Shown one piece after another: positions 65 to 28,955 of a stretch of 29,149 nt of DNA. A model generated the notes under the pieces. It was given only the letters and a program-made list of their open reading frames with translations, was not told where the DNA came from and ran no database searches. Location of the stretch: contig CAVQGX010000066.1 in the NCBI GenBank assembly GCA_963712115.1, positions 1 through 29,149 of the forward strand, written 5' to 3'. Source of the stretch: an uncultured delta proteobacterium (GTDB lineage: Bacteria; Desulfobacterota; Syntrophobacteria; BM002). The translations under genes were made by a program, and so were the position numbers. Position 1 is the first letter of the stretch. Each line of letters begins with the position of its first letter.

Positions 65-310
65 CCCATCCTATCTAAACTTCTTCTGACAAATGGCACT
101 TTTATTCCAGTTTATGTAACTGATTTACTTACAACTTCTAATCTGGTTTCCATCAGCAAATGAGCTAACCATTTGAAAATCGATAGAAAGTTAGCGCGAC
201 ACCTCACTGGCATGGATTTTGGTATGCTTAACCGCTAGGGCTTCTGGTCTAATGCCCCCAAACACCCCATTAGATTTCGGTGGAGACTAGTAGTGAGCTT
301 CGCCCAAGTC
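65..310 (+). repeat. Paralogous sigma54 promoter/leader cassette (copy 1; copy 2 at 27685-27940)
   Basis: Collinear shared blocks with 27685-27940: CCATCCTATC, TAAACTTCT, TGATT(T/G)ACTTACAACT, AGCTAA..ATTT.AA, CTGGCA, GCTAGG, ATGCCCC.AAAC, CCCCAT.AGATTTCGGT, TTCGCCCAAGT. Confidence 0.8.
208..223 (+). promoter_or_regulatory. Candidate sigma54 promoter (variant -12)
   Basis: TGGCATGGATTTTGGT = GG-N10-GG; AT-rich tract upstream; homologous to the site at 27838. Confidence 0.55.
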
Positions 311-372
311 CCATCTCCTCGACAGATAATTGCCAAAAGCCCTCACACTCCGTCATGGGAGGTTTACCTGCG

Positions 373-558
373 ATGACCCATACATGCCCTCGCTGCAATA
401 GAAAGTTCGTAGGGGATAAACCCCCGATGTTTATCGCTGGCGGTAAAGGAATTTATTTTTTCTGTAGCATTAGATGCCGAGACAAATGGGTATATCCCCG
501 TGATTCAAGATTGAATTTGGAGCAGAAGCCATCTGGCCTTCAGCGGGATTTTTCGTAA
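373..558 (+). CDS. Small TRASH/MYM(zf-FCS)-like zinc-binding protein
   Basis: GGAGG at 358-362 before ATG 373; CPRC-x~21-FCSIRCRDKW motif. Confidence 0.65.
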   Translation: MTHTCPRCNRKFVGDKPPMFIAGGKGIYFFCSIRCRDKWVYPRDSRLNLEQKPSGLQRDFS

Positions 559-587
559 TTCACAGTGGTTGTTTCGTAGGTGAAGTT

Positions 588-830
588 ATGCATCAACCCC
601 CGAGTGACAGATGTGTAGATTGTGTCTGGTGGTATGAAGGGCCTATATTGTGCGAGGGTTGCCCTAACAATCCAGAATCAGAGGCAATGAAAATGCCTTG
701 TTCTCAGTGTAAGAAGATTCTATCTGTAAGCGATTTTTGTGAGATACACTATGAAGAGGACGGCCTTCACTTGCTCTGTACCAAGGAGTGCAAAAACGAG
801 TGGGAGGGACTTCGGACCACGAATGAGTAG
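588..830 (+). CDS. Small Cys-rich protein (CxxC-x9-CxxC plus TRASH-like finger)
   Basis: CVDC..CEGC then CSQC...LCTKECKNEW. It may alternatively start at ATG 687 after GAGG. Confidence 0.6.
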   Translation: MHQPPSDRCVDCVWWYEGPILCEGCPNNPESEAMKMPCSQCKKILSVSDFCEIHYEEDGLHLLCTKECKNEWEGLRTTNE

Positions 831-1145
831 TTGGGCAACCACCAATAGCCCAAAACGAGATATTATTCATTTTCAAGGGCCATGCGGAGCTTCGGTTTCG
901 CTTTTTTATTGTGGTATCCACCTTGGCCGTGGAAATAGTAATTTTCGTATTCATCTATTAAGGATATTGGTGTATGTTTAAAACGAGTGTCCTCTTTTTG
1001 CCGAGGGCAGATGCCCCGAACAAAATCTCGTTGAAAAATGTGTTCAATTCCTCGGTTCGCAACCGCTGGAGAATATGAGAGGGTACGTGATGGTCGATGC
1101 TGCCTAAAAGACCTGATTGGCTTTGATGATTCTGGAGAAATCTAC

Positions 1146-1508
1146 GTGGATCAGCAGACCAGACGAAAAACCACCAGAGTTCCTGTGTTCTGCATTGTTC
1201 ATCTCCTGCAGACCGATCTCAATAAGGTTGGAGGCAAAATGTACAACTTAAGCATTGGAGGTTTCGGGCTTAAAACCAATTATCCTATTTCCATCGCAGA
1301 ACAGCTCACAGTGGCCTTCCAACTGCCGAAGACAATCGGCCTTGTATCTGGTCTGGGTCAAGTGGTCTGGCGTCAATTCCACGGTGATACACCTGGACAT
1401 GAGAAGACTTTGTTCACCGCAGGAATAGAGTTTTTGAGCCTCAGCAAACCCTCCAGAAAAGCTGTTCGCGATTGCGTCAGAATGTTAGCCTCTCCACCAA
1501 TCGAATAG
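1146..1508 (+). CDS. PilZ domain protein
   Basis: RRKTTR (RxxxR) and NLSIGG (D/NxSxxG) motifs, GQVVW, GIEF; GGAG before GTG 1146. Confidence 0.88.
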   Translation: MDQQTRRKTTRVPVFCIVHLLQTDLNKVGGKMYNLSIGGFGLKTNYPISIAEQLTVAFQLPKTIGLVSGLGQVVWRQFHGDTPGHEKTLFTAGIEFLSLSKPSRKAVRDCVRMLASPPIE

Positions 1509-1583
1509 CCTTCACCCTTCCCCCTGTCAGCAACCGCAATGATTACGGTAACTGAAGCGGTTCAATCGCTGACTGCCTGATTA

Positions 1584-2276
1584 CTATTTAATTAGCGTGA
1601 GGTTTTTGGGAGCAGCAGGTAGGGCGTCCACACCGCCGACAATGATAGTCACCGTTTCAGAAGCACTCAGCGGTGGTGTACCAGTGTCATTTACAGTGAA
1701 GAGAACGCCATAGTTTCCGGCATCTCCATTAGTGGGCGTCCACCAGAAAGTGCGGTTAGCAGAGTCAAAATTAGCGCCTGCCGGGAGATGGCTAACTGAA
1801 TAGCTCAAAGCGTCACCGTCAGGGTCAGTTGCCATTACAGTAAACTGAAGCAATTGGCCCTCAACAGTAGTCTTTTTACCTATGGGATTTAATACCGGTG
1901 AGTTGTTGACTGAGCTATAGGACACTTCATTAGAATAATCACTTTCATTTCCGTAGATATCATAAGCAGTAGCTGCAAAGTAGTAGGGCTCAGTGTCGAT
2001 AAGGTCTGTTATCGTGCAACTAGTCTGGTTGCCCACGTCTGTGGTAACATCGTAGTTACGGCTGGAATTGCCATAATATATTTTGTAGCCAGCAAGATCT
2101 GGGTGGGTAACCGGATCCCATATCAACGTTACTTGTGCTGGATAAGCATTCGAGGTGAGAATAAGTATGCATACAGCAGCCAGGATAAATACCAGAGCAG
2201 TGCGAGATAATAAGGAAAGATCTGATCGAAGACCCCGGTACCCAATAAAGCTCGGCGAAGTTTTCAATGGTGACAC
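1584..2276 (-). CDS. Secreted fibronectin type III plus putative Ig/cadherin-like domain protein
   Basis: Signal peptide ending AYP-A; VTLIWD..DLAGYKIYYG..YYFAATAYD..GNESDYSNEV (FN3); NNSPVL..ATDPDGDALSY..LPAGA..WTP (Ig/cadherin-like). GGAGG precedes GTG 2276. Confidence 0.85.
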   Translation of the reverse strand: MSPLKTSPSFIGYRGLRSDLSLLSRTALVFILAAVCILILTSNAYPAQVTLIWDPVTHPDLAGYKIYYGNSSRNYDVTTDVGNQTSCTITDLIDTEPYYFAATAYDIYGNESDYSNEVSYSSVNNSPVLNPIGKKTTVEGQLLQFTVMATDPDGDALSYSVSHLPAGANFDSANRTFWWTPTNGDAGNYGVLFTVNDTGTPPLSASETVTIIVGGVDALPAAPKNLTLIK

Positions 2277-2336
2277 AGCGCACCTCCCTCCCCGCAGCTT
2301 AAGGCCTACAGGCATTGAGAAACTGACTTTTACATA

Positions 2337-2352
2337 GGCAAGACTGGTGCCG
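2337..2352 (-). promoter_or_regulatory. sigma54 promoter for the FN3 gene
   Basis: Minus strand CGGCACCAGTCTTGCC = GG-N10-GC, about 60 bp upstream of the start. Confidence 0.7.
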
Positions 2353-2643
2353 GGAAGAAGGAACGAATCTTTTTTTTATGTAAAGAATTAAAATGTCTTG
2401 TTTGGCTGATAAGTTACAATGCACTCATAGGAAGACTCCTGCTCTAGTGGAGATACCTGCAGTGGCAAAAACCGTGCAATTTGTAATACATCAGGCAAGA
2501 AATCGGTATGCCAGCGGATAACCGTTTTGCGGCACTTGTTGACGAAATTTGGCAGCTCTATGCCCACTATCTATATCATAGTTGAGCAATCGATTTTGCT
2601 TAAATATTTATAATTAATAATAAATAACTCTTATTATTCAATC

Positions 2644-2659
2644 TGGCACGATCTTTTCA
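2644..2659 (+). promoter_or_regulatory. Candidate sigma54 promoter (variant -12)
   Basis: TGGCACGATCTTTTCA with an AT-rich tract at 2596-2640; divergent from the 2337-2352 promoter. Confidence 0.55.
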
Positions 2660-2668
2660 TTGTGTGGA

Positions 2669-2728
2669 TTTACACTGCGTCACCTTAAGCCCCATCGGCT
2701 TTTTCAGGTCGAGTCGATGGGGCATTTC
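2669..2728 (+). ncRNA. Candidate sigma54-driven small RNA (CCCCATC hairpin family)
   Basis: GCCCCATCGGCT..AGTCGATGGGGC hairpin at 2689-2723 right after the promoter; no ORF follows. Confidence 0.4.
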
Positions 2729-2827
2729 TATTCCAATCTTCCTTGCTGCTCATCCACCGCAGCAGATAGATGTTATTTCTTTGAAGTAAGTTGCTATTTA
2801 ACAAACTCTTGCGCGTTGTTGCAACCT

Positions 2828-3277
2828 TAGCCCGGATATTTCATGAATTCACGCCCTGGCGTGACTGCGACCACTTCACGATCTCAGATTTCAGATTTTA
2901 GATTTCAGACTGATGGGTGTCTGATGCAAACCGGTTATTTGAGTAAAACAAGAATACAACTTTAACTTCCACCGTCTGCCTTGTCTTACTCGGTCTTGCG
3001 CAATCTCAAATCCGCAATCTGCAATCCATAATCGTCCTTCCTGGCGTCCTCTGGTGTTCCTTCGACAGGCTCCCCGCGACGACGCTCGGGACGGGCAGGA
3101 CAAGCTCACCCTGCGACGCGCCGTTCGGGAACCAACACCCTGCCGTTGCCAGGTGGCCCGTCCATCCTCTTCGCGCTCGCTTCGCTCGGCTAAAGCCCTT
3201 ACCGCAAGCGGTATCTGCGACAAGCGGGTTCCCAATTACGCGGTCTCGCGACAGCAATTCATGAAATATCCGGGCTA
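2828..3277. mobile_element. MITE family B, long composite copy
   Basis: Perfect 22-bp terminal inverted repeats TAGCCCGGATATTTCATGAATT (terminal TA may be the target duplication); no transposase inside. Confidence 0.85.
2885..3027. repeat. Inverted pair of heptamer tandem tracts
   Basis: (CAGATTT)n at 2885-2910 and (GCAATCY)n at 3000-3027, inside MITE B. Confidence 0.65.
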
Positions 3278-3407
3278 GGTCACCAGTTGGCCGGTACGTT
3301 TGGTTGTTGGGGTCTTGCATTTGTGGTAAGCTGGGAAGTCGTCACGGCATCGACCTGGTAGAGGAGAAATCCTCCGAGAAATAGTCTTTTAACTGCGAGT
3401 TGCTTCT

Positions 3408-4007
3408 ATGGAAAAAGAAAGAAGGCGACATTTGAGAGCCAGACTCGATTGGCCTGTCAGTATTCATATCGGAGAAGAGTCCTTGGAACGGGTAACATTC
3501 GACATCGGCCCGGATGGTGCGTTTGTCCGCGGCTTGTCCCTCATAGAGCTGTATGAAGTCTTTGATATGACCGTTATTGGACCTGTCCGTCCAATGACGA
3601 CCAAAGCAAGGGTGGTCTGGTCGAGAAATGAAGTGGTTCCAGGACTGGAACAGGATATGCCGCGTGGCATGGGTGTCGAGTTCATCAAGATCTCTGATGA
3701 AGACCGGAAATTCGTTTCCTCTTTCATTTCAGGTCTTGATTTTGCCGTGTACTTGGAATCCGAGGCTGCACATGAAGTTGAGGACGGGTTGATAGAGGAA
3801 CATCTGATAGAGAAGCAGAAGGAAGAAGACAAGATTAACCCTGCTCAAAAATCACCCAAAAAATGCCCCCGAGGCCACAAACATGTGTCCTGGTCTGCCG
3901 ATGAAGACTATCTTTTCTGTTGGGACTGCAATGCATGGTATGGTCTCGCTGAGTGTGTTAATCCGAAGAATGGTGATTCCTCAAGTGGTACTGATTCAGA
4001 GGGCTAA
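3408..4007 (+). CDS. PilZ domain protein with acidic linker and C-terminal Cys/His zinc-ribbon-like domain
   Basis: ERRRHLR, DIGPDG, ARVVW, GMGVEF; C-terminal CPRGH-x13-CWDC. Confidence 0.88.
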   Translation: MEKERRRHLRARLDWPVSIHIGEESLERVTFDIGPDGAFVRGLSLIELYEVFDMTVIGPVRPMTTKARVVWSRNEVVPGLEQDMPRGMGVEFIKISDEDRKFVSSFISGLDFAVYLESEAAHEVEDGLIEEHLIEKQKEEDKINPAQKSPKKCPRGHKHVSWSADEDYLFCWDCNAWYGLAECVNPKNGDSSSGTDSEG

Positions 4008-4269
4008 TTTCTTTGGCTGACCAGATCAAACCAGTCAAAGTCTACAGGGTCAAGCGGTCCGATTGCAGGGCGGCTTGATGGTTAAACCAGAAGATAAAGT
4101 GTGTCATGGGTTTCGGCCCTCTTCCCATGAGCACGCCGATTTATATCAAATTGGTGGTTTTACATATTGAGTGAATCCCGCGCCGTGTGCTATGACAAGC
4201 AGCGGGCAGTGGCAGAAGTTACAAAAATATGCAGCAATTTGAATGGTCCTAATCATGAGGCGATTCCTA

Positions 4270-4878
4270 TTACCTCACCTTCAACTTTAATTTCTTAATT
4301 ATCAATTTCTGCTTTTTCTCAAGGTTTTGATAATCCTCACGTAGCTTATCTACCTGAGCTTTAATACTTGGCAACTCTTGTACAGATTCCGAAAACAAAG
4401 ATATTGAATCGGGAATAGAGCTAACCGCTTGTGACAGATTGTTCAGAGCAGCTAACTGTCTTTCCGAAACCTCCGAGAATCTGTCAACTACCGCTACTTG
4501 ATCTTTCGAATCCTTCCAGCTCAAGTAGCTAACCCCGACATAGGCTATCGTTATTAGGAATAAGGCCACTGTGAAAGCAGCAAGTATCCTCATAGGCCAA
4601 ATCAATTTCTTCTGCTGCTGAATCAAATTACTGGCGTAATAGGTGCTCTCACGCTGATATTCAGCCAGGTTTTTTGTGTACGAAAGGCTCTCTTGTTGTT
4701 GCGCTACAAGATGCTGATGGAGTTCGACGATTCTCTTCTGTCGCTCGATTGACTCCAAGGCAGATTTAATCTCGAATGCAGCTCGTGCTAGTTGATAGCC
4801 AGTTCTGCCGGGATGAGAAGAATGCAATATCAATTGATCCTGGATTTTTTCCCAATCATCTTCGTATCTAACTTGCAT
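4270..4878 (-). CDS. Hypothetical membrane protein with coiled coils
   Basis: 202-aa ORF with one hydrophobic segment (ILAAFTVALFLITIAYVGVSYL) flanked by Q/E/L-rich helices. Confidence 0.7.
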   Translation of the reverse strand: MQVRYEDDWEKIQDQLILHSSHPGRTGYQLARAAFEIKSALESIERQKRIVELHQHLVAQQQESLSYTKNLAEYQRESTYYASNLIQQQKKLIWPMRILAAFTVALFLITIAYVGVSYLSWKDSKDQVAVVDRFSEVSERQLAALNNLSQAVSSIPDSISLFSESVQELPSIKAQVDKLREDYQNLEKKQKLIIKKLKLKVR

Positions 4879-5274
4879 GAATCACCTCGCTCTCTATTCG
4901 TTGGGAATTCCTCAACGTCCTTGGTACTTTGGCCGGGGACCTTATCACCTCGCTTTCTCCGGTTGTCTTCTTTGTGCAACTTACCGTGGATTAATTTTCC
5001 GTTATATTTCCACAGCCATCTTTTCCGGTAGGAATCCACTCCTCATGGTTGGATTTCTCTCTTAAGGCTGATTAGACCCCCCCTTTGTCAAGCAGTAAAT
5101 CCATTTGGGATAGCAACTTCTGTTTCCACTTACACGGAGCTTCGGTGTTGATGAGAACTGGGAGGTTAAATCTTAGACTTATGTCAAAAGATGGTCCACC
5201 CTTGATCTACTCCAAGATTTTCTGCCGGGCCTTGTCACGCTGATAAATGATAAACTAGATAAGATGTAAAGTTT

Positions 5275-5466
5275 ATCCTAATGTTGCAGACCCATTCCGA
5301 GGAAAAACGCGCAAAAACGCGCCAGATGTGGCTGCGCACAGGCTCGGACAGGTCGAGGCGTACTTGACCGTACGTGAAGTCCTGTCCGAGGTGAGCACAG
5401 CCTCAGATGGCGTGCTATCGCGCGAGCGCAGCGGTCTTTGCCGGTTTGGGTTTGCAACATTAGGGT
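5275..5466. mobile_element. MITE family A copy 1
   Basis: TIR A(T/C)CCTAATGTTGCA...TGCAACATTAGGGT; internal CTCGGACAGG/CCTGTCCGAG hairpin; homologous to three other copies. Confidence 0.88.
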
Positions 5467-5590
5467 TTACTATGAGTTCGGTTAGAACTTCACGTTTTCT
5501 GTCAGAGGTTGATTTCCTTACTTTTTGTCCAGGTTTCAACATTAGTCATTATACGTTGCATTGCCAGGTGGCGGAGTAAGTTTTTTTCAC

Positions 5591-5621
5591 TTGACAAGGG
5601 CGAAAATATTCATGGTATAGT
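5591..5621 (+). promoter_or_regulatory. sigma70-type promoter upstream of dacA
   Basis: TTGACA...TGGTATAGT (extended -10; spacer long, 19 nt). Confidence 0.45.
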
Positions 5622-5788
5622 TACCACGCTGCTCTGTCCATGCTTTCATTCGCTGGGTTTTCCCCAGTGCCTACTGTAGTCCAGATTGTCTTCCCACTGT
5701 AAAGTCAAAAATATTGGGCTCAGATTTAGGGCGCTCTAGTGCGATCTGTTTTAGCCCCACAACTTGAGATAAGAACAAGGAGTTCTCA

Positions 5789-7069
5789 ATGCAGCGAAGA
5801 CTGAGAAAAAGAGCGTCGCACCTTATCTTTTGGCTCACTCTCACCATTTATATGGGCTCACCTAAAGTCATTTGGGCAAGAGATATTTTGCCACATCCTT
5901 TTGACGTAGATGTTCGCAGTGCAGTGCTTTTGGACGCCAAATCTGGCGAGTTTGTCTATGGGAAGAATCCTGAGGAGAGGATCAAACCTGCAAGCCTTGT
6001 AAAAATCCTCACACTCTTCCTGGTATTCGACGCAGTTGAGAATGGTCAGGTCAGTCTAGAGGACAACGTACTGGTCAGCAAAAAGGCTTGGCGGACTAGA
6101 GGTTCTAAAATGTTTATCGAAGTTGGCACTCAAGTGCCACTTGTTGAACTTGTTAAAGGTATTGCAGTGGTCTCAGGAAATGATGCGTGTGTAGCCGTTG
6201 GCGAGTTTCTCCAAGGCAGCGAGCAGGCTTTTGTAGAGAAGATGAATGAAAAACTGGACGATCTCGGGATGCGAGATACCAGAGTTCAGACTACAAATGG
6301 CTTGCCAGCTTCGGATCAATACACTACTGCTGCAGATATGGCCTTGTTGGCAAGGGCCTATGTTCGGACACATCCCGAGGCGCTTCAGTACCACAAATTA
6401 ACAAAGTTTACCAGTGAAGGTGTCAGCCAGCGCAATCGAAATGGACTTCTCTGGCTTGATCCCTCGGTGGACGGTCTCAAAACAGGATATATCTCTCGAG
6501 CAGGCTACCACCTCGTAGCCACTGCCCGCAGAGAAGATCAGCGTTTCATTGCTGTGGTTATGGGTGCAAAGAATCCAAAGGTTAGAGAGCGTGAGGCCTT
6601 GCGCCTACTAAACTATGGCTTCAGAAATTATGTCTCGGTGCCTCTCTTCGAAAAAGGCCAGGTGCTGCTGCAACTGCCAATCTGGAAAGGAACAGCCGAG
6701 AAGGTGGGATTGGTGGTCGCCAAAAGCGAGGTGATCACTGTTCCCATTCCCCTAAGAAATTTTGTTTCGCGGCAGTTTGAGGCTCCTGAACAGCTCTTAG
6801 CGCCGATTCGGAGAGGTCAACACCTCGGACAAGTATTGATTACTGCTAACGATAAGGTGCTTAAGTCGATAGCACTTGTCGCTGATCGGGAAGTGGTTCA
6901 GGGCGGCTTACTCAAAAGGACTGTGGATACTATAGCTCTCCAGTGCAAGGCTCATAATATGCGCCTAATATCTGTCATTATTCTTTCCGCTGTCGTACCT
7001 TCGTTTCTGTGGTGCAAGAGTCGGAGACGACAGAACCGCAGAAGACGAACCCGATATCTATCTGTCTAA
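5789..7069 (+). CDS. dacA: D-alanyl-D-alanine carboxypeptidase (peptidase S11, PBP5/6 type)
   Basis: SxxK (PASLVK), SGN and KTG motifs; PBP5 C-terminal domain; C-terminal TM with basic tail; AAGGAG RBS. Confidence 0.95.
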   Translation: MQRRLRKRASHLIFWLTLTIYMGSPKVIWARDILPHPFDVDVRSAVLLDAKSGEFVYGKNPEERIKPASLVKILTLFLVFDAVENGQVSLEDNVLVSKKAWRTRGSKMFIEVGTQVPLVELVKGIAVVSGNDACVAVGEFLQGSEQAFVEKMNEKLDDLGMRDTRVQTTNGLPASDQYTTAADMALLARAYVRTHPEALQYHKLTKFTSEGVSQRNRNGLLWLDPSVDGLKTGYISRAGYHLVATARREDQRFIAVVMGAKNPKVREREALRLLNYGFRNYVSVPLFEKGQVLLQLPIWKGTAEKVGLVVAKSEVITVPIPLRNFVSRQFEAPEQLLAPIRRGQHLGQVLITANDKVLKSIALVADREVVQGGLLKRTVDTIALQCKAHNMRLISVIILSAVVPSFLWCKSRRRQNRRRRTRYLSV

Positions 7070-7304
7070 AAGGGATTTGTCTTTCTCACTTTCCCGCTTA
7101 CGACAATCGGCTTTATACCAAACGGAGCAACACCGGTCGCTAGGATGTTCCAACCCCTCATGCTTCCCACCTGCCTGCCCATATGTGATTTTACCTTTTG
7201 TGCATAAGGATTGGCATATATTTTCCATATTCTTTGAGTAGATTTCTTAAAGTAATGTTGGTTAAGCAACTAAAATGTAAAGAAAAATTCTCTTCTATTT
7301 AAGT

Positions 7305-7320
7305 TGGCGCAATTCTTTCA
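7305..7320 (+). promoter_or_regulatory. Candidate sigma54 promoter (variant -12)
   Basis: TGGCGCAATTCTTTCA, same -12 variant and downstream GTGTGG as 2644; 14-bp motif 93 bp upstream. Confidence 0.4.
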
Positions 7321-7363
7321 AAGTGTGGTATAGTTCTATTACCACTTTTCCGAGGGAACAACA

Positions 7364-7537
7364 ATTGAGTCACCCAAGTCGAGAGCTGGAGATTTCTTTG
7401 TAGTAGCCGTCCTGATGATACTCGCAACACTGCTGATTGCGAACCTTATTTCCAACGCATCCTGCTTATCTGTTAGCATAGCGTGCGGTGCAATTTATCC
7501 ACCTCCTGGATGCTGCACCACCCAATTCGGCAGGTGA
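7364..7537 (+). CDS. Possible small membrane protein (ATT start or decayed ATG)
   Basis: GAGGG then ATT; ESPKSRAGDFFVVAVLMILATLLIANLI... hydrophobic; followed by a hairpin and T-tract at ~7520-7556. Confidence 0.3.
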   Translation: MESPKSRAGDFFVVAVLMILATLLIANLISNASCLSVSIACGAIYPPPGCCTTQFGR

Positions 7538-7616
7538 GCAGAATGGGGGGCTTTTGTAGATTCGCCTGGCATTGAATGCAGCAGATGGAATTATCATTCG
7601 GGCAGGAGATAAAACT

Positions 7617-7880
7617 ATGAAAATCTTTTTAGTTCTTCTGCTATTTCTTTTTCTCGGATGCACATCATCTCCACCTCCCACGTGGAACCATCCTGACAAG
7701 ACAGACAAGGAGTTTAGAGAAGATGTGGAAGAATGCCGTTTTTTGTCGACCAAATCCGATGGCACGGGGATGGGAGGCTCAAAAGTCACGGATCAATCAA
7801 GGCTTTTTGAGCAGTGCATGAAAATGCGGGGTTACCATCTGGGGCAGAAGGAGGCAAAGGAATCTGAACCAAAGAGATAG
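7617..7880 (+). CDS. Small lipoprotein
   Basis: AGGAG RBS; MKIFLVLLLFLFLG-C lipobox; F..D.EEC...FEQCMKMRGY paired-Cys pattern. Confidence 0.8.
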   Translation: MKIFLVLLLFLFLGCTSSPPPTWNHPDKTDKEFREDVEECRFLSTKSDGTGMGGSKVTDQSRLFEQCMKMRGYHLGQKEAKESEPKR

Positions 7881-8014
7881 AAGACACGCCTAAACTCTCC
7901 TTGTCTGCCTCATTGCATTTCTCTTCCATCCCTCACCTCCATTGTGTCAGGTGCCCAGCAGTAGGCTCGGAGCGAAGGCCCAACTTTCACCAGATCCCTG
8001 CTTAGCCCAGGCCG

Positions 8015-8617
8015 CTATGGTGCTTGCCAGATGACATTGCCTTTTTCGTTGAATAAGACCAATGATGAAAGAGGCCGCTTGTCGATTACTCCGGTTTGAG
8101 TATGTTTCAGATCAGCGAATCCAAGAACGACACGATTATTACCTTTGGCGTTTTTCAATGCCAGATGTGGTCTCCCTTCTATGTCTAATGCCAAGATAGC
8201 TCTTTCAACTCCTTTCTTGTCCATCAAGAGTATAGCGGGCCATTCGTCCTCTGTACTCATTAGCCTCGTTAAGCCAATCTGTAACCGGAGACCGCTTTTA
8301 TCTCGCATAGTAAGAGCTGGCGTTCCCTGACCGACTGAAAAACCAGCCCTATAACGGCCGTTCTCATCGTAGTAATGAAGTCCGGGTTCACCATTTTGAT
8401 CTACCGCCAACTTGATACGGGGTTTGCGGTCCAAACCTAATAGAATTATCTCCCTTGCCATAATAACTCTAAGTTCAGGAGATATTTCTGCGATCTTCTT
8501 GGTTGCTTCCCTGGCAAACACAAGTTGATTACTGAAGAACCAACTTGATACCATCCCACCTGCTAGGCCAGCCGCCAAGGCCAGCAATGCCAGCGAAATG
8601 TATTGTTTCCTGCTCAT
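8015..8617 (-). CDS. Hypothetical exported protein with repeated L.L.D..G..R beta motifs
   Basis: GAGGAGG RBS; N-terminal hydrophobic anchor; repeats DENGRYR, DKSG-LR, DKKGVER, NAKGNNR, NEKGNV. Confidence 0.8.
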   Translation of the reverse strand: MSRKQYISLALLALAAGLAGGMVSSWFFSNQLVFAREATKKIAEISPELRVIMAREIILLGLDRKPRIKLAVDQNGEPGLHYYDENGRYRAGFSVGQGTPALTMRDKSGLRLQIGLTRLMSTEDEWPAILLMDKKGVERAILALDIEGRPHLALKNAKGNNRVVLGFADLKHTQTGVIDKRPLSSLVLFNEKGNVIWQAP

Positions 8618-9296
8618 CTCTTCCTCCTCATTTGTACCGCCGAAGTGTTTGATTCAACTCCTCCGTGCCAACTCTGTCGCAAAAAACGACTACGCTATTG
8701 ATCTTTGAAAATAAAGGTGCGCTCTACGAGCAGTATCTAGTGCAGGTTAAGAGAACTACTTACAGCTTACAAAAAGGCTGGATTGCTTGCAATAATAATC
8801 GCTGCCTACGTGCGCTTAGCCGAGCAAAATGGTGGTTTTCCCGGTTGACAGGGACAACCTCACCCACGATATAAGACATGGGCGTGGTAATGAGGTCATT
8901 GCTTGCTTCAAGTTTTTTGCCCCAAACACGAGCTCCCATTGGCCCTGACTGGACTGGTCGATGGGGGTATATTTTGTTGACTGCCCACAGCACTCTGTGC
9001 CACATTCAATCCCACCCGATTGTAAATTAAGGGATGTGAAGTTTCGAAGTCGATCGCTAGTATGCCATATAACTCGATCAAACGAAGTGACTCTCTCTTT
9101 CTGACCCGGGTTAGCCGAGGCGCAATGGTATTTTTTCTATTGACACATTGAGCACCAGTTGTGATAGAGTGAAATTGCTGCGCTGTAAGGCTTTTGGACC
9201 CTACTTCCAGATGCCCCATCCATCTCTCGTTTTTTGCCCACCTGATTCCCAGACTTATATGCCATTTTGAACAGGAAAGTTCTATTACTTGTCTTT

Positions 9297-9484
9297 ACCC
9301 TAATGTTGCATACCTACACCGGTAAAAACCTCTGCGCTCGCGCGATAGTCCCGCCTATAATTGTGCGCCTCGGACAGGACTTCACGTACGGTCAAGTACG
9401 CCTCGATCTGTCCGAGCCTGTGCGCAGCCACATCTGGCGCGCTCTTGCGCGTTTTTCCTCGGAATGGGTCTGCAACATTAGGGT
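9297..9484. mobile_element. MITE family A copy 2 (inverted relative to copy 1)
   Basis: Perfect 14-bp TIR ACCCTAATGTTGCA. Confidence 0.9.
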
Positions 9485-9520
9485 TAAGTTTCCGATTATG
9501 TTCAGGGTGGAGTGTAAGTC

Positions 9521-12353: not shown

Positions 12354-12784
12354 AGCATCTCCCTCTGAGCCGATTGAGGCTCAATAGAGTATGGAAGAAA
12401 TATTAATGCTAGGAGTGTGTCGGACTAGCTAGCTCTCAATGGAAAAATAGGGACGCAAGGTTCAGTCGCACTGGCATTCTGACTAACGTTGACCACTCCA
12501 TTCGCCGTTTTAGGGTCCCATTAGGGCCACGATGACCACCAAGTGTCCAATAAAGAGGTACTCCGACAGACTCCTAGCCACTTGTGAATGATGTCAAGTA
12601 AACAATGAAATTCATAAAAATATTTTTCTCTTCACTATTAGGGCAAAATAGCTTTAAATGGTAACAATAATATGGAAATTTTATCAGAAGCTTTTTGCAG
12701 TCTCGCGAAGCCTACGAGCGAATGCGGGTCGACTGAATCCCCAATCTGTCCTTAGCTTTTGACACCCTACTGTCAAGACGCACC

Positions 12785-15738: not shown

Positions 15739-15930
15739 GCTATTGAAGCTCCCCGCAACAGAGGCGAACGCATATCCCCTTGAATCATCCGAGCTACCTC
15801 GCCGTTGGTCAATTCGCCAATTAGTATTTGGTAGTTTGGCCAAATTTGGCGATTTTACCAGGCTACTATAAAGCACGATAACAGAGTCAACTTCTGGAAA
15901 CAATTGGATTTATCAACCATCTCACCCGTT

Positions 15931-15946
15931 TGGCATCCTTACTGCT
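15931..15946 (+). promoter_or_regulatory. sigma54 promoter
   Basis: TGGCATCCTTACTGCT = GG-N10-GC; IHF-like TATCAA at 15911. Confidence 0.75.
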
Positions 15947-15956
15947 CATGCAAATA

Positions 15957-16052
15957 AGACGACCGGGTGGAGTGGCTCCTTTGCCATTCAAAGCTTATTG
16001 TTTGCCCCCGTCAGCCATCCGTGCCCGGTTTGTTTGATGGGGACACTTCTTT
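15957..16052 (+). ncRNA. Candidate sigma54-driven small RNA or leader of the DGC gene
   Basis: Hairpin GAGTGGC-TCCTTT-GCCATTC, then CCCCGTCAG...TTGATGGGG hairpin at 16004-16044. Confidence 0.45.
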
Positions 16053-16171
16053 ATATAGCATTAGATCTTGAAGTATAATGGCTGTAAGAAAAGGACTTTG
16101 GTGTAAAACAACCGCTTCCTGGGTTCGACAAAAACGCACTGTATTGGCTGCCATTTCCTCGAGAGGTTACT

Positions 16172-17325: not shown

Positions 17326-17434
17326 GCAAATGGGTGGAAGTGGAGTTGGTGCAGTTGGTGAGGGTTTCTCTTTCTAAAATCCTCAGCTCATTTCAAAACG
17401 GCCTATCCCCATCACTTTCAAAATAACAGAGTTA

Positions 17435-17731
17435 ACCCTAATGTTGCATACCTATGGCGAGGAAAAACGCGCAAGAGTGCGTTCCGCCGCAGGCGGACTG
17501 CGCACAGGCTCGAACAGGTCGAGGCTTCGTACTTGGCCGTAAGTGAAGTCCTGTCTGAGGCGAGCACCGTTCGACCTGGGCCTTTCGGCAGTGAGACGTG
17601 TCGACGAGGAGTTCGACTGCCCTCGGCCCTCAGCTCAATGCCGAAGGGCTCACGGCCGAGGGCAGTCGCAGATGGCATCCTATCGCTCGAGCGCAGCAAT
17701 TTATAGCGGTGTAGGTATGCAACATCAGGGC
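17435..17731. mobile_element. MITE family A copy 3 with ~100-bp internal palindromic insertion
   Basis: TIR ACCCTAATGTTGCATACCTA / TAGGTATGCAACATCAGGGC; extra segment ~17568-17670 includes CGACTGCCCTCGGCC...GGCCGAGGGCAGTCG. Confidence 0.85.
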
Positions 17732-23928: not shown

Positions 23929-24327
23929 ATGTCTCTTGATCAGGAAAAACGTCTGCAACCACGGACGCCCGTCAATTGGCCTTGTATTATGTTGATCCCA
24001 CAGAAGTTCATTGCCGGAGAGGTAATAAATATCAGTACCAGCGGTGCCTTCATTCATTGTCTTGCCGCACCTAGCCATGAGGAATCTTTTCGCCTCTTAA
24101 TTAACGTTTTGCCTGAAAAGAAAATAATGTTGGCCAACGCAGTGACGGTCAGGTCGACTATCTCAAGCTGCCATGATGATCTCTCTTCTTGCGGGATAGG
24201 CGTCCAATTCACGGAAGCATTTGGTGGTGGCCGAGAGTTTTTTTCCAAATGCGAACATTTTTCAGAGCTAGAAAGCAGAATGGAAAGTGAGAAAGGAAAT
24301 CCTGCCATAGTAAAAACCAAACTGTAA
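23929..24327 (+). CDS. PilZ domain protein
   Basis: EKRLQPR, NISTSG, GIGVQF. Confidence 0.88.
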   Translation: MSLDQEKRLQPRTPVNWPCIMLIPQKFIAGEVINISTSGAFIHCLAAPSHEESFRLLINVLPEKKIMLANAVTVRSTISSCHDDLSSCGIGVQFTEAFGGGREFFSKCEHFSELESRMESEKGNPAIVKTKL

Positions 24328-24810
24328 TCATCCGTCCTTCTGCATTCATTGATCCATTCAACACTTGCTGCGAAACAACCACAACAAAAGACCCTCCATG
24401 CGCTCCGAACCAGCATGCTATCTTGGTCTATGGGTGTGCTCGGTTTGAACTTGCATATCTCTGCCTGGCAGACAATAGTGAAAAAACGCGATATTGAGAG
24501 AAAAGAAGAGAAAATAGCAGAAAAGCCAGTTCGCTCCTTTGCGATCCAAATTCTCTAAAGCAGATATCATCAAGCTATCCGAACACTTCCTTAGATATGC
24601 TGTAAAAGTGGTTCAGATATTGCGAAGTTACACGGTGACTTATAAAATAATCATATAATTGTAATAGGTTATAAAAGTTCATAACGCGAGTAGCTGATAC
24701 CATTTTCAGGTCAAACTAGATTTGACGGACAGGAGAATAATAGGCTAAGAGCTGCGGTTGTCTTGTGAGAACCAATATCATAGATTAAGAAACCCGAGAG
24801 GTTTGCGAAC

Positions 24811-25176
24811 ATGTCTGTCCATAAAGAAAGGCGGAAATATCCTAGAACTGATATAAACTGGCCTGTTCTCATTCGAGATACTATCGGCGCTCAAGTAGCA
24901 GAGATAGAAAATCTCAGTGGCAGAGGAGCCCTTATTCGCAGCCACATACCACTTATGCCTAAAGACAAGTTTAAGCTTCACATCATGGTCCCTGGGCATA
25001 GGCCGGTGAATCTCAGAGCTGAGGTGGCTTGGCTGCAGGTTAGTTGCACTCAAAATTGTGCCCTCCCGTGTGGAATGGGGGTGCGTTTTCTAAGAATCTC
25101 CAAACGAGATTTTAGCTGTCTTGCTCAGATAGTAAATGAGCACAACGGAGAGGCAGCCGCACCAGAGAAATTGTAA
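24811..25176 (+). CDS. PilZ domain protein
   Basis: ERRKYPR, NLSGRG, AEVAW, GMGVRF. Confidence 0.92.
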   Translation: MSVHKERRKYPRTDINWPVLIRDTIGAQVAEIENLSGRGALIRSHIPLMPKDKFKLHIMVPGHRPVNLRAEVAWLQVSCTQNCALPCGMGVRFLRISKRDFSCLAQIVNEHNGEAAAPEKL

Positions 25177-25272
25177 GCCTTGGTGTTGAGTAAGGCCAAC
25201 ACTGGTTTGAGGCATCAACCTAACTATATCGTCGGTATCCCCAACTCATCCGCGTCCGTTTTTCCAAAGTCT

Positions 25273-25470
25273 ACCATAATGTTGCAAACCCAAACCGGCA
25301 AAAACCGCTGCGCTCGCGCGATAGCACGCCATCTGAGGCTGTGCCCACCTCGGACAGGACTTCACTTACGGTCAAGTACGCCTCGACCTGTCCGAGCCTA
25401 TGCGCAGTCCGCCTGCGGCGGAACGAACTCTTGCGTGTTTTTCCTCGGAATGGGTCTGCAACATTAGGGT
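25273..25470. mobile_element. MITE family A copy 4
   Basis: ACCATAATGTTGCA...TGCAACATTAGGGT; same internal hairpin. Confidence 0.88.
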
Positions 25471-25963
25471 TTACACATCACACCCCACCTTATCCTTTGA
25501 TAGCCAGCTACCATATCTATGGTCAGTTTGAACTATTATTTCTCAAGAACCACATCAAAAGAAAGATCCAGACCTGAGCATGGTAGTATCGACCAGACTT
25601 CACTGCTGTCCTCCTAGTCTTGGAGTTAGCATCGAGTTTAACAATCTTTCTTTATTTATAATTCTCTTTCAAAAATCTCTCAACCAATAAGGCGCTAACC
25701 TCATCCCAAAATGCAGCAATTCTTGTCCGACTAAACACGTTATACTTTAGTTTATGACCCGAGAGCGACCACCTACACTTTGTGGTGAGAATTCCGGAGG
25801 GATAGTGTGAATTAAGGCGCGTAATACAAAGTCCTTTCCCAGTCCTCAACACTGTCCACCTCACTTTCTCTCTGGTTGCTTTTGGGTAGGCCATAGAAAG
25901 GGTTGTCAGGATATGATATGTTTAACCTTTCGTAAAATACTGCATTCATTTTCGCGGACCGAC

Positions 25964-27283
25964 ATGAGTAAAAAAGAAGCTACTTCCTCCAACGCTCTAG
26001 GAAAAGGGTTTTACAAGAGCGTCGTTCGCCAAATACGTCGATCTCGCAAGCCCATTACTATTCTGTTCACTGATGTAGTGGGTTCGACTCGCTACTGGGA
26101 CGTTCATGGTGATGTCAAGGGTCGATTGATGATCGATCTACTCAACCGACTCATTTATCCTGTGATCAGAAGACACCGTGGCAAAGTGATCAAACATATT
26201 GGTGATGCCATAATGGCGTCCTTTCGGTCCCCTGCGAACGGTCTTAAGACTGCAATTGGGATTCAGCAGATCTTAGAGGAGAGGCGTAAGCAAGACACAA
26301 ACTTTCGGTTGAAGGTGCGAATTGGTGTCCACACAGGCGAGGCTTTGGTGGAGAACAAAGATGTATTTGGAGATACAGTCAATTTGGCCGCCCGCTTGGA
26401 GCGCTGTGCCCGGGGCGACGAAATCTGCGTATCGGGTGACACGGCAGAAAAGTTAAGTAAGAAGGACTTTGGCTTAGTCAAGACAGGCAGCATCTTGCCA
26501 AAAGGCAAGCGCAGTGAAGTTACGATCTATCAGTGCGAATGGCGCGAATACCCGAGCATTATTGATGAGATAAAAGAGGATGCTTTGCTCCAAGTGTTAA
26601 TGCGGCAGAAGTTTGAATTGCTGGCCTATTTTTTTGCTTGCCTCGTTATTCTTTATTTCCTATTCATCAAATATTTGCGTTACCTCCTCGCTGACAATGA
26701 GAACTTTGCCTTACTCACCCTAAAACTCCAGCGCATCCTTGACGTTCGCATTGCCATTCCATTTGCCATGGTAGTCTTGGCTATTGCGACTGTAATTTTC
26801 CTTTTTCGTACAGGAAGTGTCCCCTATTCTGCCCTGAGGTTCCTAAAAGGTGTGTTTGGCTTTACCGTTGGATTCATGCTGCTCTTTATACCAACAAACT
26901 ATTTTCACCCTGATTTGGGCCTGAGATGGAATGAAACGCTCTACCAATCTCATCACCTCTTCGTCGAAGTGCTGGAGGACAAAACAAGGATTCACGAGGC
27001 GCCCTCCGAAACCTCGTCCGTCATTTACGTAGTCAATGATGGCACGATCCTCCTGTTGTCTGATGTCATAGAACGGGAGGGGATTAAATGGAACAAGGTC
27101 TTGGTGGGTAAGAAGAGGTATGGCTGGCTTCCCCGCATTATCCCGGCAAAGATAGGTTTACCTGAAAAACGGCTCAGCATTTCGAACAAGTTCTATTTCA
27201 GATATCATGATCTCTACGCATTCATAATAGGCGTAGTCGGTTTTATCTGGGGTGTGCTGAGCTTCAGGTTTAAACCTACGTAG
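25964..27283 (+). CDS. Class III adenylate/guanylate cyclase with TM segments and SH3b-like domain
   Basis: TILFTDVVGST, VIKHIGDAIMASF, RIGVHTG, DVFGDTVNLAARLE (K and D suggest ATP specificity); three TMs, IHEAPS..W.KV..YGW (SH3b-like), final TM. Confidence 0.93.
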   Translation: MSKKEATSSNALGKGFYKSVVRQIRRSRKPITILFTDVVGSTRYWDVHGDVKGRLMIDLLNRLIYPVIRRHRGKVIKHIGDAIMASFRSPANGLKTAIGIQQILEERRKQDTNFRLKVRIGVHTGEALVENKDVFGDTVNLAARLERCARGDEICVSGDTAEKLSKKDFGLVKTGSILPKGKRSEVTIYQCEWREYPSIIDEIKEDALLQVLMRQKFELLAYFFACLVILYFLFIKYLRYLLADNENFALLTLKLQRILDVRIAIPFAMVVLAIATVIFLFRTGSVPYSALRFLKGVFGFTVGFMLLFIPTNYFHPDLGLRWNETLYQSHHLFVEVLEDKTRIHEAPSETSSVIYVVNDGTILLLSDVIEREGIKWNKVLVGKKRYGWLPRIIPAKIGLPEKRLSISNKFYFRYHDLYAFIIGVVGFIWGVLSFRFKPT

Positions 27284-27287
27284 TGCA

Positions 27288-27445
27288 ATTAAGGGGGAAG
27301 TCAAAAAAAGAAGGATTACCTTCAAGTTGGAGGCATCAGGAGCCAAAGAGGCAAGCTTGGTAGGAGACTTTAACAGTTGGGATGTCAAGAAGCACATAAT
27401 GAAAAGGGAGAACAAAGGGAGGTGGGGCAAGATTGTTACTCTTGT
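27288..27445 (+). pseudogene. Glycogen-binding (CBM48/isoamylase early set) domain remnant
   Basis: KKRRITFKLEASGAKEASLVGDFNSWD...MKR..KGRW.K.V.L; no in-frame start upstream of the domain and the YEY.F.VDG.W half is missing. Confidence 0.75.
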
Positions 27446-27564
27446 CATTTGCTACCCTCAACAATTTGTTCAATGTGTAAATAGCTACGTTATTGAAGAC
27501 TGGCATGGTTTAAAGGAAATGGCCCCTGCTGGCCTTTGTACCTCAGGTAAGTGGGTTTTTTTTT

Positions 27565-27580
27565 GGGTACTGGTTTTGCA
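27565..27580 (+). promoter_or_regulatory. Candidate sigma54 promoter
   Basis: GGGTACTGGTTTTGCA = GG-N10-GC. Confidence 0.6.
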
Positions 27581-27590
27581 AAGTTAAACA

Positions 27591-27677
27591 ATCGATGTGG
27601 ACCTGAGTGTCGCCTTGGGCCACTATCTCCTATTGCCCCCATCAGTTTGGCAAGTGGCTGATGGGGGTAACTTTTTC
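27591..27677 (+). ncRNA. Candidate sigma54-driven small RNA
   Basis: GTGG..CCAC hairpin, TATCTCCT linker, GCCCCCATCAG..CTGATGGGGGT hairpin, T-tract. Confidence 0.5.
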
Positions 27678-27684
27678 AAAGCAT

Positions 27685-27940
27685 CCATCCTATCCGCCTC
27701 GGGATAAACTTCTAATAAGAAGTAGCAATTTTTTTCTTAGATTAGGTAGTTGATTGACTTACAACTACTACGATGACTACCTTTGGAATATTAGCTAAAT
27801 ATTTAAAGATTATAGCAATTTTGCCAAGAGTCCTTGCTGGCACATGTTTTGATATTACCCAAGTGCTAGGACTACGGGGCTTATGCCCCTAAACCCCCAT
27901 CAGATTTCGGTAAAGTCTGGTGGGGGCTTTCGCCCAAGTG
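27685..27940 (+). repeat. Paralogous sigma54 promoter/leader cassette (copy 2)
   Basis: Homologous to 65-310; TGGCACATGTTTTGAT at 27838; CCCCCATCAGA..TCTGGTGGGGG hairpin at 27894-27926. Confidence 0.8.
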
Positions 27941-27968
27941 CTACCCTCGTAACTATAGGAGACGAGTT

Positions 27969-28043
27969 GTGGAATCTATGGCAATGAACTTGACCATCTT
28001 TGTTTTGGTGGCTATTGCGCTAACTGCAGGCCATAGAAAATAG
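27969..28043 (+). CDS. 24-aa hydrophobic peptide
   Basis: AGGAG 7 nt before GTG; MESMAMNLTIFVLVAIALTAGHRK. Confidence 0.5.
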   Translation: MESMAMNLTIFVLVAIALTAGHRK

Positions 28044-28497
28044 AATCACTCTAAACCTCTCAAAGCCTTTGCACCCAAATGTGCCAGAAAACTAGTGAGT
28101 CACTATGGTCGTTACAGGCTACATAATCTCTTTTTTTACAGGCGTGGCAGTCGGTTTTGTATTCGCAGCTGTCATACTTTTTCGTGACAAGCTCAACCGA
28201 TCCCCCTGAACAAAGAGCAGCGTTGTAATTGCCACCTCTCTTCACGACTGAGGGACATCATGTCAGAGGGCAGAAGACCTGCGGATTGCAAGAGATACCC
28301 ATTCTGTGACCATCTGAAGTCGGTACTCTAAAAGGTACCGGGCGACCTTGTAATTACCAGGATGATAGTATTGCAGAGAGAAGCCAAATCAGCCTGCACC
28401 CAATGTCCTAGCTTTGAACCTAGGCCGTACAGAGAGTAAACTATACTCCTCTGCAGTTTTTGTTTCTGTCCCTTCCAATTTGAGATGAACGTGAGCA

Positions 28498-28701
28498 ATG
28501 ATAGAAAGTCTGATTAGAGCATGTCCGCTTTTCGCTGAGGGTAAATGTCCACAGCAGCAACAAATAGAAAAACTCTATCTATTTCCCCAACTATCTACCA
28601 TTGAGGACATTGAGAAAATCTGCAGAAGCCAATGCTGCACCAAGGAAGGTCTTTCCTCTGATCACGCTGAGAAGGTTATTGCACATCTTAGACAATCCTG
28701 A
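28498..28701 (+). CDS. Stand-alone Cys-rich domain protein
   Basis: CPLFAEGKCPQ..I.K..L.PQL....IEKIC...C matches the N-termini of 12785 and 20376. Confidence 0.7.
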   Translation: MIESLIRACPLFAEGKCPQQQQIEKLYLFPQLSTIEDIEKICRSQCCTKEGLSSDHAEKVIAHLRQS

Positions 28702-28809
28702 CATTTAACCCCTTGCACGGTTAGCAACAGGGTTGCAGCATATACTTTCCCCGTCCTAATCTCTTAACCGGGTAAGGCCTCTCACCTTGGCCCTAACCTA
28801 ATCGGCTCT

Positions 28810-28851
28810 GCCCCCGCTTGCCTTCGTTGCCTCGGTCAGTGGGGGCTTTTT
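28810..28851 (+). terminator. Intrinsic terminator
   Basis: GCCCCCGCT...AGTGGGGGC followed by TTTTT. Confidence 0.6.
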
Positions 28852-28853
28852 GT

Positions 28854-28869
28854 TGGCATCGGGTTTGCA
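28854..28869 (+). promoter_or_regulatory. sigma54 promoter
   Basis: TGGCATCGGGTTTGCA = GG-N10-GC. Confidence 0.75.
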
Positions 28870-28879
28870 ATAGTGAATC

Positions 28880-28955
28880 CGTGGGGTGAGCGTAGGGTTC
28901 ACCCTGATGGCGTATGGTAGCCCCCATCAGTTTGGCAACTGGCTGATGGGGGGGG
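28880..28955 (+). ncRNA. Candidate sigma54-driven small RNA
   Basis: GGGTGAGC..GTTCACCC hairpin, then a 33-nt hairpin differing by one base from 27635-27667. Confidence 0.5.

Follow-up and report, generated by a model that had tools for sequence, protein, structure and literature searches.

The DNA analysed here, which we call the window throughout, is a stretch of 29,149 nucleotides (nt) from an uncultured delta proteobacterium (contig CAVQGX010000066.1, assembly GCA_963712115.1), and the elements of interest in it are short promoter-plus-hairpin units, many of them of the sigma-54 type, that end in a hairpin of nearly constant sequence. In our judgement these are probably short, self-contained transcription units making trans-acting regulatory small RNAs (sRNAs), and we hold the two parts of this reading with different firmness. 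Namely, with moderate to good confidence we take the units to be real sigma-54 or sigma-70 transcription units making sRNAs, while our confidence that the RNAs would act in trans by base pairing is lower. From the DNA we infer transcription, the ends of the transcripts, their action in trans and their targets. The family is new and lineage-restricted, and it embodies no new principle.

The main evidence comes from the orientation of the constant hairpin, whose common stem reads CCCCAYYRG...YRRTGGGG. In a census of the 4.9-Mb genome that was blind to promoters and used the pattern CCCC[AG]YY..-loop-..GGGG, 85 hairpins were found. Counting as a T-tail any 15 nt next to the hairpin with 6 T or more, 60 of the 85 have one, 6 of them on both sides; at the level of the family, 60 of 85 cases thus show a G+C-rich stem-loop with a U tract behind it, as in an intrinsic terminator. 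A sigma-54 match with at most one mismatch lies 55-92 nt upstream of 19 of the 60 on the strand of the T-tail and of none on the other strand, with 0.61 expected by chance, and for the exact pattern the count is 16 against 0, with 0.05 expected. Since the promoter matches fall 19 to 0 by strand, the hairpin is oriented and lies at the 3' end of a short unit, and the constant stem is an oriented terminator-like hairpin and not a repetitive extragenic palindrome (REP). The original prediction, made from the letters of the window, had proposed a sigma-54-driven sRNA family and had named random hairpin orientation and independence from GG-N10-GC sites as what would speak against it; genome-wide, neither is the case.

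The constancy of the 3' stem, which that prediction had taken as the mark of the family, is borne out, but its specificity is not. Namely, when 57 T-tailed hairpins were sorted by their upstream feature, 19 followed a sigma-54 match, 8 a strict sigma-70-like promoter, 29 neither and 1 an open reading frame (ORF) of at least 100 codons, and several of the 29 without a pattern-called promoter show visible -35 and -10 boxes. The same type of hairpin also terminates a CBM48-family gene in relatives. The constant stem is thus not specific to sigma-54 units. Next to its counterparts in two relatives, the CBM48-family gene of the window (27327-27587) is shortened by an internal deletion, and its terminator, of the family type, is a decayed one.

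Promoter and hairpin together, searched as one pattern, give 27 units in the genome, of which 22 were kept and five (C18_103362, C20_102203, C21_122284, C24_22398 and C40_10344) were removed as chance. All told, there are about 22-24 sigma-54 units genome-wide, in keeping with the many paralogs that had been foreseen, and they fall into three classes. Class A takes in site 6 of the window and, less strictly, site 4, and is marked by the promoter TTGGCAT(C/T)GGGTTTGCA and the 5' hairpin GGGGTGAGC...GCTCACCC; class B, represented by site 3, has the promoter TTTGGCATCTTTTCTGCC and the terminator loop GCCATCCGTGCCCGGTT; and in class C, with sites 5 and 1, the -12 box is non-canonical, two hairpins are present and small ORFs come next. 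The class C box is kept as TGGCA-N6-TTGnT in paralogs and in one relative (G011), in which the first hairpin carries a compensatory change from G-C to C-G and a U5 tract is present. What is more, three groups of sigma-70 siblings (D1-D3; n=7 for D1) have the same architecture as the sigma-54 units, and tandem arrays occur, as at 28733-28966. At the level of the family we find an own promoter and terminator, an intergenic location, a conserved structure and no conserved ORF.

In an alignment of 21 class A units, the GG and TTGC of the promoter are invariant while the spacer varies, and RNAalifold predicts two helices, both of them those of our covariance model. Across 43 units, 95.3% of the cells pair, as against 40-54% in slid controls, and 12 of 18 pairs are changed on both sides, which none of 500 shuffles reaches; these counts rest on an alignment fitted to the model and lean towards structure for that reason, which weighs against our reading of them. 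Both helices covary. The lower stem of the terminator is, in addition, kept in sequence, with five C-G pairs and an A-U pair in 38-40 of 41 distinct rows. What varies among the units is not the 5' end, where a variable seed had originally been placed, but the linker that joins the 5' hairpin to the terminator and that is 64% pyrimidine (C+T).

Searched with the covariance model, which was built from class A, the own genome gives 63 matches at E <= 1 and 32 at E <= 0.001; among the 32, two pairs are duplicates due to assembly redundancy and a few are sigma-70 siblings. All 21 genomes of the taxonomic family, each from an uncultured member of the Desulfobacterota, contain matches, including 17 of 17 in the genus, and weak matches occur in 4 of 39 genomes from other families of the class. 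The idea that the units are special to a cyclic di-GMP (c-di-GMP) gene cluster therefore has to be given up: copies are found genome-wide and across the whole family. A scan of species-representative genomes yielded 31 pattern loci, of which we judged seven to be non-family (L001, L007, L016, L020, L027, L029 and L031) and 24 to be members, all 24 in metagenome-assembled genomes labelled Desulfobacterota, Syntrophobacterales or 'Deltaproteobacteria', with one exception, labelled Nitrospinia. Two of the discarded loci, L001 and L020 from the alphaproteobacterial SAR116 / Puniceispirillum group, have a sigma-54 promoter and, about 60 nt on, a CCCCAYCRG hairpin with a T tract, and may be an unrelated sigma-54 small RNA. 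A phage origin was considered and rejected, the single match in a viral contig collection having no T tail and being judged chance.

Conservation at single loci points in the same direction. One single-copy member lies on contig C11, beside what looks by eye like nadA. It could be compared in 11 species, and its identity is 0.76-0.97 in the promoter and RNA as against 0.03-0.26 in the flanks, with a peak in the linker CCCATAATGTTCCCTCCCTTTTCTC. Class B paralogs of the site 3 unit lie on contigs C13, C42, C43 and C37, the one on C43 having orthologs at L022, L024 and L028. Orthologs of one class B RNA retain promoter and RNA while the downstream gene shifts in distance or orientation. The family also appears to be undescribed, as had been proposed. 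Namely, a comparison of the window with Rfam (4227 models at permissive thresholds) gave only PhrS, at 22.1 bits where 37 are needed and in an unrelated place, and that of the loci of 16 relatives only MicX, at 28.1 bits where 75 are needed, so that nothing matches at the gathering score; full-text searches of the literature, whose coverage excludes subscription journals and supplements, found no description of the family.

A further regularity concerns class B. An enhancer-like palindrome, GCCAAATTTGGC, precedes the site 3 promoter, with a second, imperfect copy at about 15814-15833, and in the whole genome it has three exact copies, all three at 79-81 nt upstream of class B sigma-54 promoters. 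Copies with one mismatch stand 78-96 nt upstream of further sigma-54 promoters that drive small secreted or membrane proteins, and two relatives have a related palindrome with an 80-nt gap. This spacing is the layout that would be expected of an activator-dependent sigma-54 promoter, and the palindrome is the strongest single argument for site 3 as a true sigma-54 unit.

Promoters and hairpins of the window

Upon re-reading of the sequence, the six GG positions, the hairpin coordinates and the + strand location given in the original prediction all stood, while the sigma-54 character of the six promoters did so in part. A promoter with GG at -24 and GC at -12, 10 nt apart, in the context TGGCAC-N5-TTGCW is present at sites 3, 4 and 6 (GG at 15932, 27566 and 28855), whereas at sites 1, 2 and 5 (GG at 209, 2645 and 27839) the -12 dinucleotide is GG (221-222), TC (2657-2658) and GA (27851-27852), respectively. 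Five of the six hairpins are intact, that of site 1 being decayed, and those at 27635 and 28920 indeed differ at 1 of 33 bases. RNA folds likewise agree with what had been seen by eye: a small 5' hairpin precedes the constant one in four cases (sites 3, 4, 5 and 6), and text resembling an anti-Shine-Dalgarno sequence is exposed as UCCUUU in the loop at 15977 and as unpaired CUCCU at about 27626. Compared with shuffles, the predicted transcripts of sites 2-6 fold with z = -2.6 to -4.75 and that of site 1 with z = -0.04. In the window, the covariance model scores 103.8 bits at 28851-28966, 77.7 at 27562-27681 and 27.7 at 2641-2737, with weaker copies at 27835-27940 (21.5 bits) and 15928-16057 (17.8 bits), and gives no match at site 1. 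All features are collected in the table.

Features of the family and its surroundings in the window, with positions counted from the first letter of the window
Feature	Position	Strand	Description
Site 1, decayed class C paralog	208..310	+	-12 is GG, hairpin broken; aligns to 27680-28000
Site 2	2644..2737	+	TGGCACGATCTTTTC, without -12 GC and without 5' hairpin; hairpin 2689-2723 intact, 46 nt downstream; z = -4.15
Lone family-type hairpin	8931..8967	+	Without promoter; element E directly after
Enhancer-like palindrome	15839..15850		GCCAAATTTGGC; precedes the site 3 promoter by 80 nt
Site 3 promoter, class B, canonical sigma-54	15931..15945	+	TGGCATCCTTACTGC; exact pattern match, then hairpin
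Site 3, class B putative small RNA	15956..16056	+	5' hairpin 15970-15989 with UCCUUU loop, linker, terminator-like hairpin 16006-16042
Site 4 sigma-54 promoter	27565..27579	+	GGGTACTGGTTTTGC; GG and GC retained, -24 box off-consensus
Site 4, class A-like putative small RNA	27590..27681	+	5' hairpin, CUCCU linker, terminator 27633-27670, then CUUUUU; z = -4.75
Site 5, class C promoter-like box	27838..27852	+	TGGCACATGTTTTGA; good -24 box, -12 is GA
Site 5, class C unit	27863..27940	+	Two hairpins (about 27876-27889 and 27894-27926); z = -3.84
Sigma-70-type sibling unit	28733..28853	+	TTGCAG-N17-CTAATC, 5' hairpin, family terminator 28811-28846
Site 6 promoter, class A, canonical sigma-54	28854..28868	+	TGGCATCGGGTTTGC
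Site 6, class A putative small RNA	28879..28960	+	5' hairpin GGGGUGAGC..GUUCACCC, G/U-rich linker, hairpin 28920-28952; z = -3.12
Intergenic element E	28965..29033	+	After the class A unit; core GTGTGAATTAAGGGA at 29013

Two of these items, the sigma-70-type unit at 28733-28853, whose T tract continues into the site 6 promoter, and the lone hairpin at 8931-8967, go beyond the six originally listed. As for the individual sites, membership of site 2 in the family is doubtful because of its missing 5' hairpin, its 46-nt spacing and its missing -12 GC. The site 3 unit has a weak U tract and a fold z of -2.57, its start being a predicted one, and the GGDEF gene after it has its own sigma-70-like site at 16050-16079, with a 10/12 match. 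The site 4 unit is absent at the corresponding position in two relatives. Site 5 has no U tract in the window and small ORFs come after it, so that this unit could be a leader and not a free RNA. The site 6 copy is likewise without a U tract (GGGGGGGGUCCCCC), and the ORF that traverses it was judged by eye to be unconserved, as other copies differ in T-tract length and stop codons.

Genomic surroundings

The association with c-di-GMP genes holds for the window, which contains 9 PilZ ORFs, one receiver-GGDEF gene and one nucleotidyl cyclase. Genome-wide, 14 of 24 sigma-54 units lie at most 1 kb from a PilZ ORF, with 1.4 expected, a count whose events are not independent, as units and PilZ genes both cluster in islands. 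The expansion of PilZ in this genome is very large (136 matches to Pfam, and 139 when a home-made profile is used), and many of the PilZ ORFs are single-domain, 100-200 amino acids long and arranged in co-oriented islands. Given so many PilZ matches (about 136), the presence of one beside a unit is little guide to what the unit would target.

With respect to the sigma-54 machinery, the genome has 2 rpoN genes (Sigma54_DBD matches) and 34 activator genes (Sigma54_activat matches), none of the latter on the contig of the window. The second rpoN gene, in the region 1147-3968 of contig C58, is 68% identical to the first and is followed by a lone receiver gene; about 450 nt past the receiver gene, a sigma-70 unit and a class A sigma-54 unit stand in tandem. 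Four related genomes have one rpoN only, and C58 could come from a co-binned relative. There is also a second recurrent sigma-54 promoter type, GGGCATAGACYTTGCA, preceded by CCNCTCCATGCTGCCCACC, for instance at C3:109856, at C3:116198 and at about 8100 of C42; the genes after it encode small hydrophobic proteins, and a degenerate copy lies near 28060 of the window.

The genome also contains a number of repeats. Element E is about 55 nt long and has a near-invariant core, GTGTGAATTAAGGGATGTAAT. Its copies, about 104 in this genome, form co-oriented runs at spacings of 1-2 kb, and every copy lies past the end of one gene and before the start of the following one. Matched by eye, many of them can be read as containing the consensus-like motif TTGACA-N18-TGnCAGATT and an IHF-like WATCAANNNNTTR. 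Within the genus, 16 of 17 genomes have the core, with 2-61 copies in each relative and 74 in the own genome. Two more cores of the window stand at 9020 and at 25805. The contig begins within a further copy, whose tail makes up window bases 1-13, and another E lies 116 nt from the contig end. Pairing of the 22 sigma-54 units with the conserved E core gave a median z of -0.55, with none below -2. The thought that the TGGCAC of site 2 is part of an inverted E was dropped by eye, the common stretch being about 10 nt only. Identity of E with an integron attC site, which would have R''/R' boxes (RYYYAAC...GTTRRRY) in an imperfect hairpin beside intI, was likewise rejected, since the attC-type repeats beside the integron integrase of this genome differ in sequence. 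That integrase gene (TIGR02249, 486.9 bits at a cut-off of 265) is at a contig end (C27:1-3300), and the repeats beside it, with short cassettes, were read as classical attC sites (..TAACGGCCGAGCTCAGCGGCGGGGCTG...GGTTAGG).

Two further repeats have inverted ends. One, about 200 bp long and resembling a miniature inverted-repeat transposable element (MITE), with terminal inverted repeats CCTAATGTTGCA...TGCAACATTAGG, occurs at 5270-5470, 9295-9490, 17430-17567 and 25273-25471 and in about 20 more copies elsewhere in the genome. The other, about 170 bp long, lies at 12409-12579, and its ten other copies, most of them 99-100% identical, suggest a recently active MITE. Finally, window positions 1-9368 are 99.65% identical to positions 14307-23673 of contig C28, which reflects either assembly redundancy or a large recent duplication; consequently, the C28 copies of sites 1 and 2 are not independent, and genome-wide counts are slightly inflated.

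Mode of action and alternative explanations

If the units are what we believe them to be, they would act as follows. Each would be about 75-100 nt long, and in the canonical members (sites 3, 4 and 6) sigma-54 RNA polymerase would start from the GG-N10-GC promoter about 10-13 nt past the GC, an enhancer-binding activator being required, whose site in class B is probably the palindrome GCCAAATTTGGC 80 nt upstream. The predicted RNA would consist, in this order, of a 5' hairpin, a single-stranded, pyrimidine-rich linker specific to each paralog, and a G+C-rich hairpin with a U tract, and the linker would pair with purine-rich sites in target mRNAs, for example ribosome-binding sites. Because the near-constant terminator is shared with the sigma-70 siblings, the promoter would set when each RNA is made and the linker what it acts on.

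A number of observations weigh against this reading. Starting with the window, sites 1, 2 and 5 are TGGCA-type -24 boxes without the -12 GC, the U tracts of the window copies are weak or missing, with a terminator scan flagging site 4 alone of the six, and no collinear ortholog in the genus corresponds to the copies at 27562 and 28851, for which reason the class A copies of the window look like recent paralogs. No activator site for class A emerged, there being no 8-mer common to 30 upstream regions other than that of abutting terminators, and genes for Hfq, ProQ and CsrA were not found in the genome, which is estimated to be 94.4% complete, so that none of the known helper proteins would be available. 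On the side of the targets, the best antisense matches of the window units to the genome outside their paralogs are 15 nt long, with E of about 0.1, which does not exceed chance. The anti-Shine-Dalgarno strings CCTC and CTCC occur 24 times in the linkers, as against 11 in random windows and 22 in composition-matched shuffles, and since the excess vanishes in the latter comparison, it is an effect of composition; what stands is the C/U richness. Public sequencing runs in which the stretch was searched for gave DNA runs only, with 0.08-0.13 of the sampled words, and no RNA run. Finally, the genome is rich in repeated intergenic modules, and because it is so full of them, some copies of the units may be inert.

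Taken further, the last point leads to the alternative that the units are themselves passive intergenic modules, akin to bacterial interspersed mosaic elements (BIME), enterobacterial repetitive intergenic consensus (ERIC) sequences or MITEs, whose promoter- and terminator-like sequence is there by chance and which serve as insulators at most, with no functional RNA. The repeats described above, that is, the roughly 104 copies of E and the two inverted-end families read as MITEs, provide a fitting background for this, and so do the 3' end of the window, which is a mosaic of paralogous pieces, the fact that contig ends fall at such elements, decayed copies such as site 1, and the 17 of 30 class A promoters that directly adjoin a terminator. 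Passive modules, however, hardly account for a relation of promoter, hairpin and T tract that is strictly oriented (19 against 0), for a promoter in which GG and TTGC are fixed while the spacer varies, for compensatory changes in the 5' hairpin, for single-copy orthologs conserved far above their flanks in 11 species, or for an enhancer-like site at a constant distance. A REP- or MITE-like repeat proper would have copies in both orientations, irrespective of promoters, and terminal inverted repeats; here, the orientation is tied to promoter and T tract, and terminal inverted repeats were not seen around the units. We consider this explanation quite improbable, and a shade more so than the one that follows.

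Namely, the units could be cis-acting leaders or attenuators, in which the downstream gene would be transcribed from the sigma-54 promoter and the hairpin would either terminate conditionally or be a structural part of the leader. Such a role would suit class C, since sites 1 and 5 have no U tract in the window and continue into small ORFs, as well as the class B copy at 38093 of contig C37, where a PilZ ORF begins about 60 nt past the hairpin and a second promoter was not noticed between them. It would also suit site 6, where the U tract is missing and the linker contains CUGAUGGCG, which nearly repeats the 3' arm and, by pairing with the 5' arm, could serve as an anti-terminator; and the units do lie near PilZ genes on the same strand. 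Yet this pairing is limited to one close subgroup and, in the minimum-energy fold, is buried in an extended 5' hairpin, while most members have a good U tract followed by another promoter, a small unit or an E element. What is more, orthologs of one class B RNA keep the unit even where the next gene is 147 to about 570 nt away or convergent, and the GGDEF gene past site 3 has a sigma-70-like site of its own. Leaders thus strike us as an unlikely account.

The RNAs might also titrate a protein in the manner of CsrB or RsmY instead of pairing with mRNAs. A few terminator loops do contain GGA or AGGG, as in CAUAGGAUC and CACAGGAGAG, and the terminator keeps the sequence of its lower stem and not its structure alone; against this, the GGA motifs are unrepeated within the units and absent from most loops, and a CsrA-type sponge in particular was rejected, as no CsrA gene was found at the completeness given above. 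We regard titration as very improbable indeed.

Returning to trans-acting sRNAs, one can extend the reading to a large riboregulatory layer built of modules, namely a sigma-54 or sigma-70 promoter, a 5' hairpin, a variable C/U-rich linker and a sequence-constrained terminator. A genus without detectable Hfq, ProQ and CsrA would then run at least 50 short RNA genes per genome from these interchangeable parts; the terminator would be a 'handle' (CCCCCA.../...UGGGGG) on which an RNA chaperone would dock, and the RNAs would tune the roughly 136 PilZ c-di-GMP receptors encoded nearby. This is speculative, and we think it unlikely to hold in full.

Relation to known small RNAs

The known sigma-54-dependent sRNAs, among them Qrr, Pxr, GlmY/Z, NrsZ and CrcZ, come from a handful of model systems and have between one and five copies. 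Qrr1-5 of Vibrio are paralogous sRNAs of about 100 nt, each with a sigma-54 promoter, an activator site, stem-loops and a Rho-independent terminator; the paralogs have one conserved seed in common, depend on Hfq and number 1-5 copies. The units described here resemble them in being several paralogous, putative short RNA units with their own sigma-54 promoters, stem-loops and a terminator-like hairpin. They differ in that there is no sequence or model match, in that the linkers vary between paralogs and no Hfq gene was found, and in that there are about 22-24 units per genome instead of 1-5, with sigma-70 siblings sharing the terminator. In Listeria, the LhrC sRNAs are multi-copy and partly tandem, and their C/U-rich single-stranded stretches pair with ribosome-binding sites; they have another type of promoter and belong to another phylum.

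What sets the present family apart is its size and setting: about two dozen such genes per genome, together with sigma-70 siblings, in islands of c-di-GMP receptors and across a family of uncultured Desulfobacterota. If expressed, it would be a large set of sigma-54 sRNAs next to the one to five copies of Qrr, and it would allow post-transcriptional control to be approached in a lineage that lacks the usual RNA chaperones. Modelling of the family is already possible, as a covariance model that works and, for one class, an enhancer-like motif are at hand, and an Rfam proposal and the mining of sediment metatranscriptomes are practical.

Pxr of Myxococcus and Cystobacter is an sRNA of about 108 nt with an apparent sigma-54 promoter and multiple stem-loops, and in Cystobacter tandem paralogs have a sigma-54 promoter each (PMC5568312). 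Tandem arrays such as 28733-28966 recall this arrangement; Pxr, though, sits at one conserved locus beside the activator gene nla19, whereas the units here are dispersed in PilZ-rich islands, have no Rfam match at the gathering score and, in the case of the window, no activator gene on their contig. Dv_sRNA2, from the sulfate reducer Desulfovibrio vulgaris, likewise resembles the family in logic: it is targeted by the response regulator DVU0679, for which a binding-site motif has been validated, and the legend of Figure 4 in that work states that predicted sigma-54 promoters, where there are any, are marked. Compared by description, it differs in being a single gene downstream of its own regulator gene (PMC3333781). 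Judged by their layout, the units of the window appear to be closest in logic to Qrr and Pxr.

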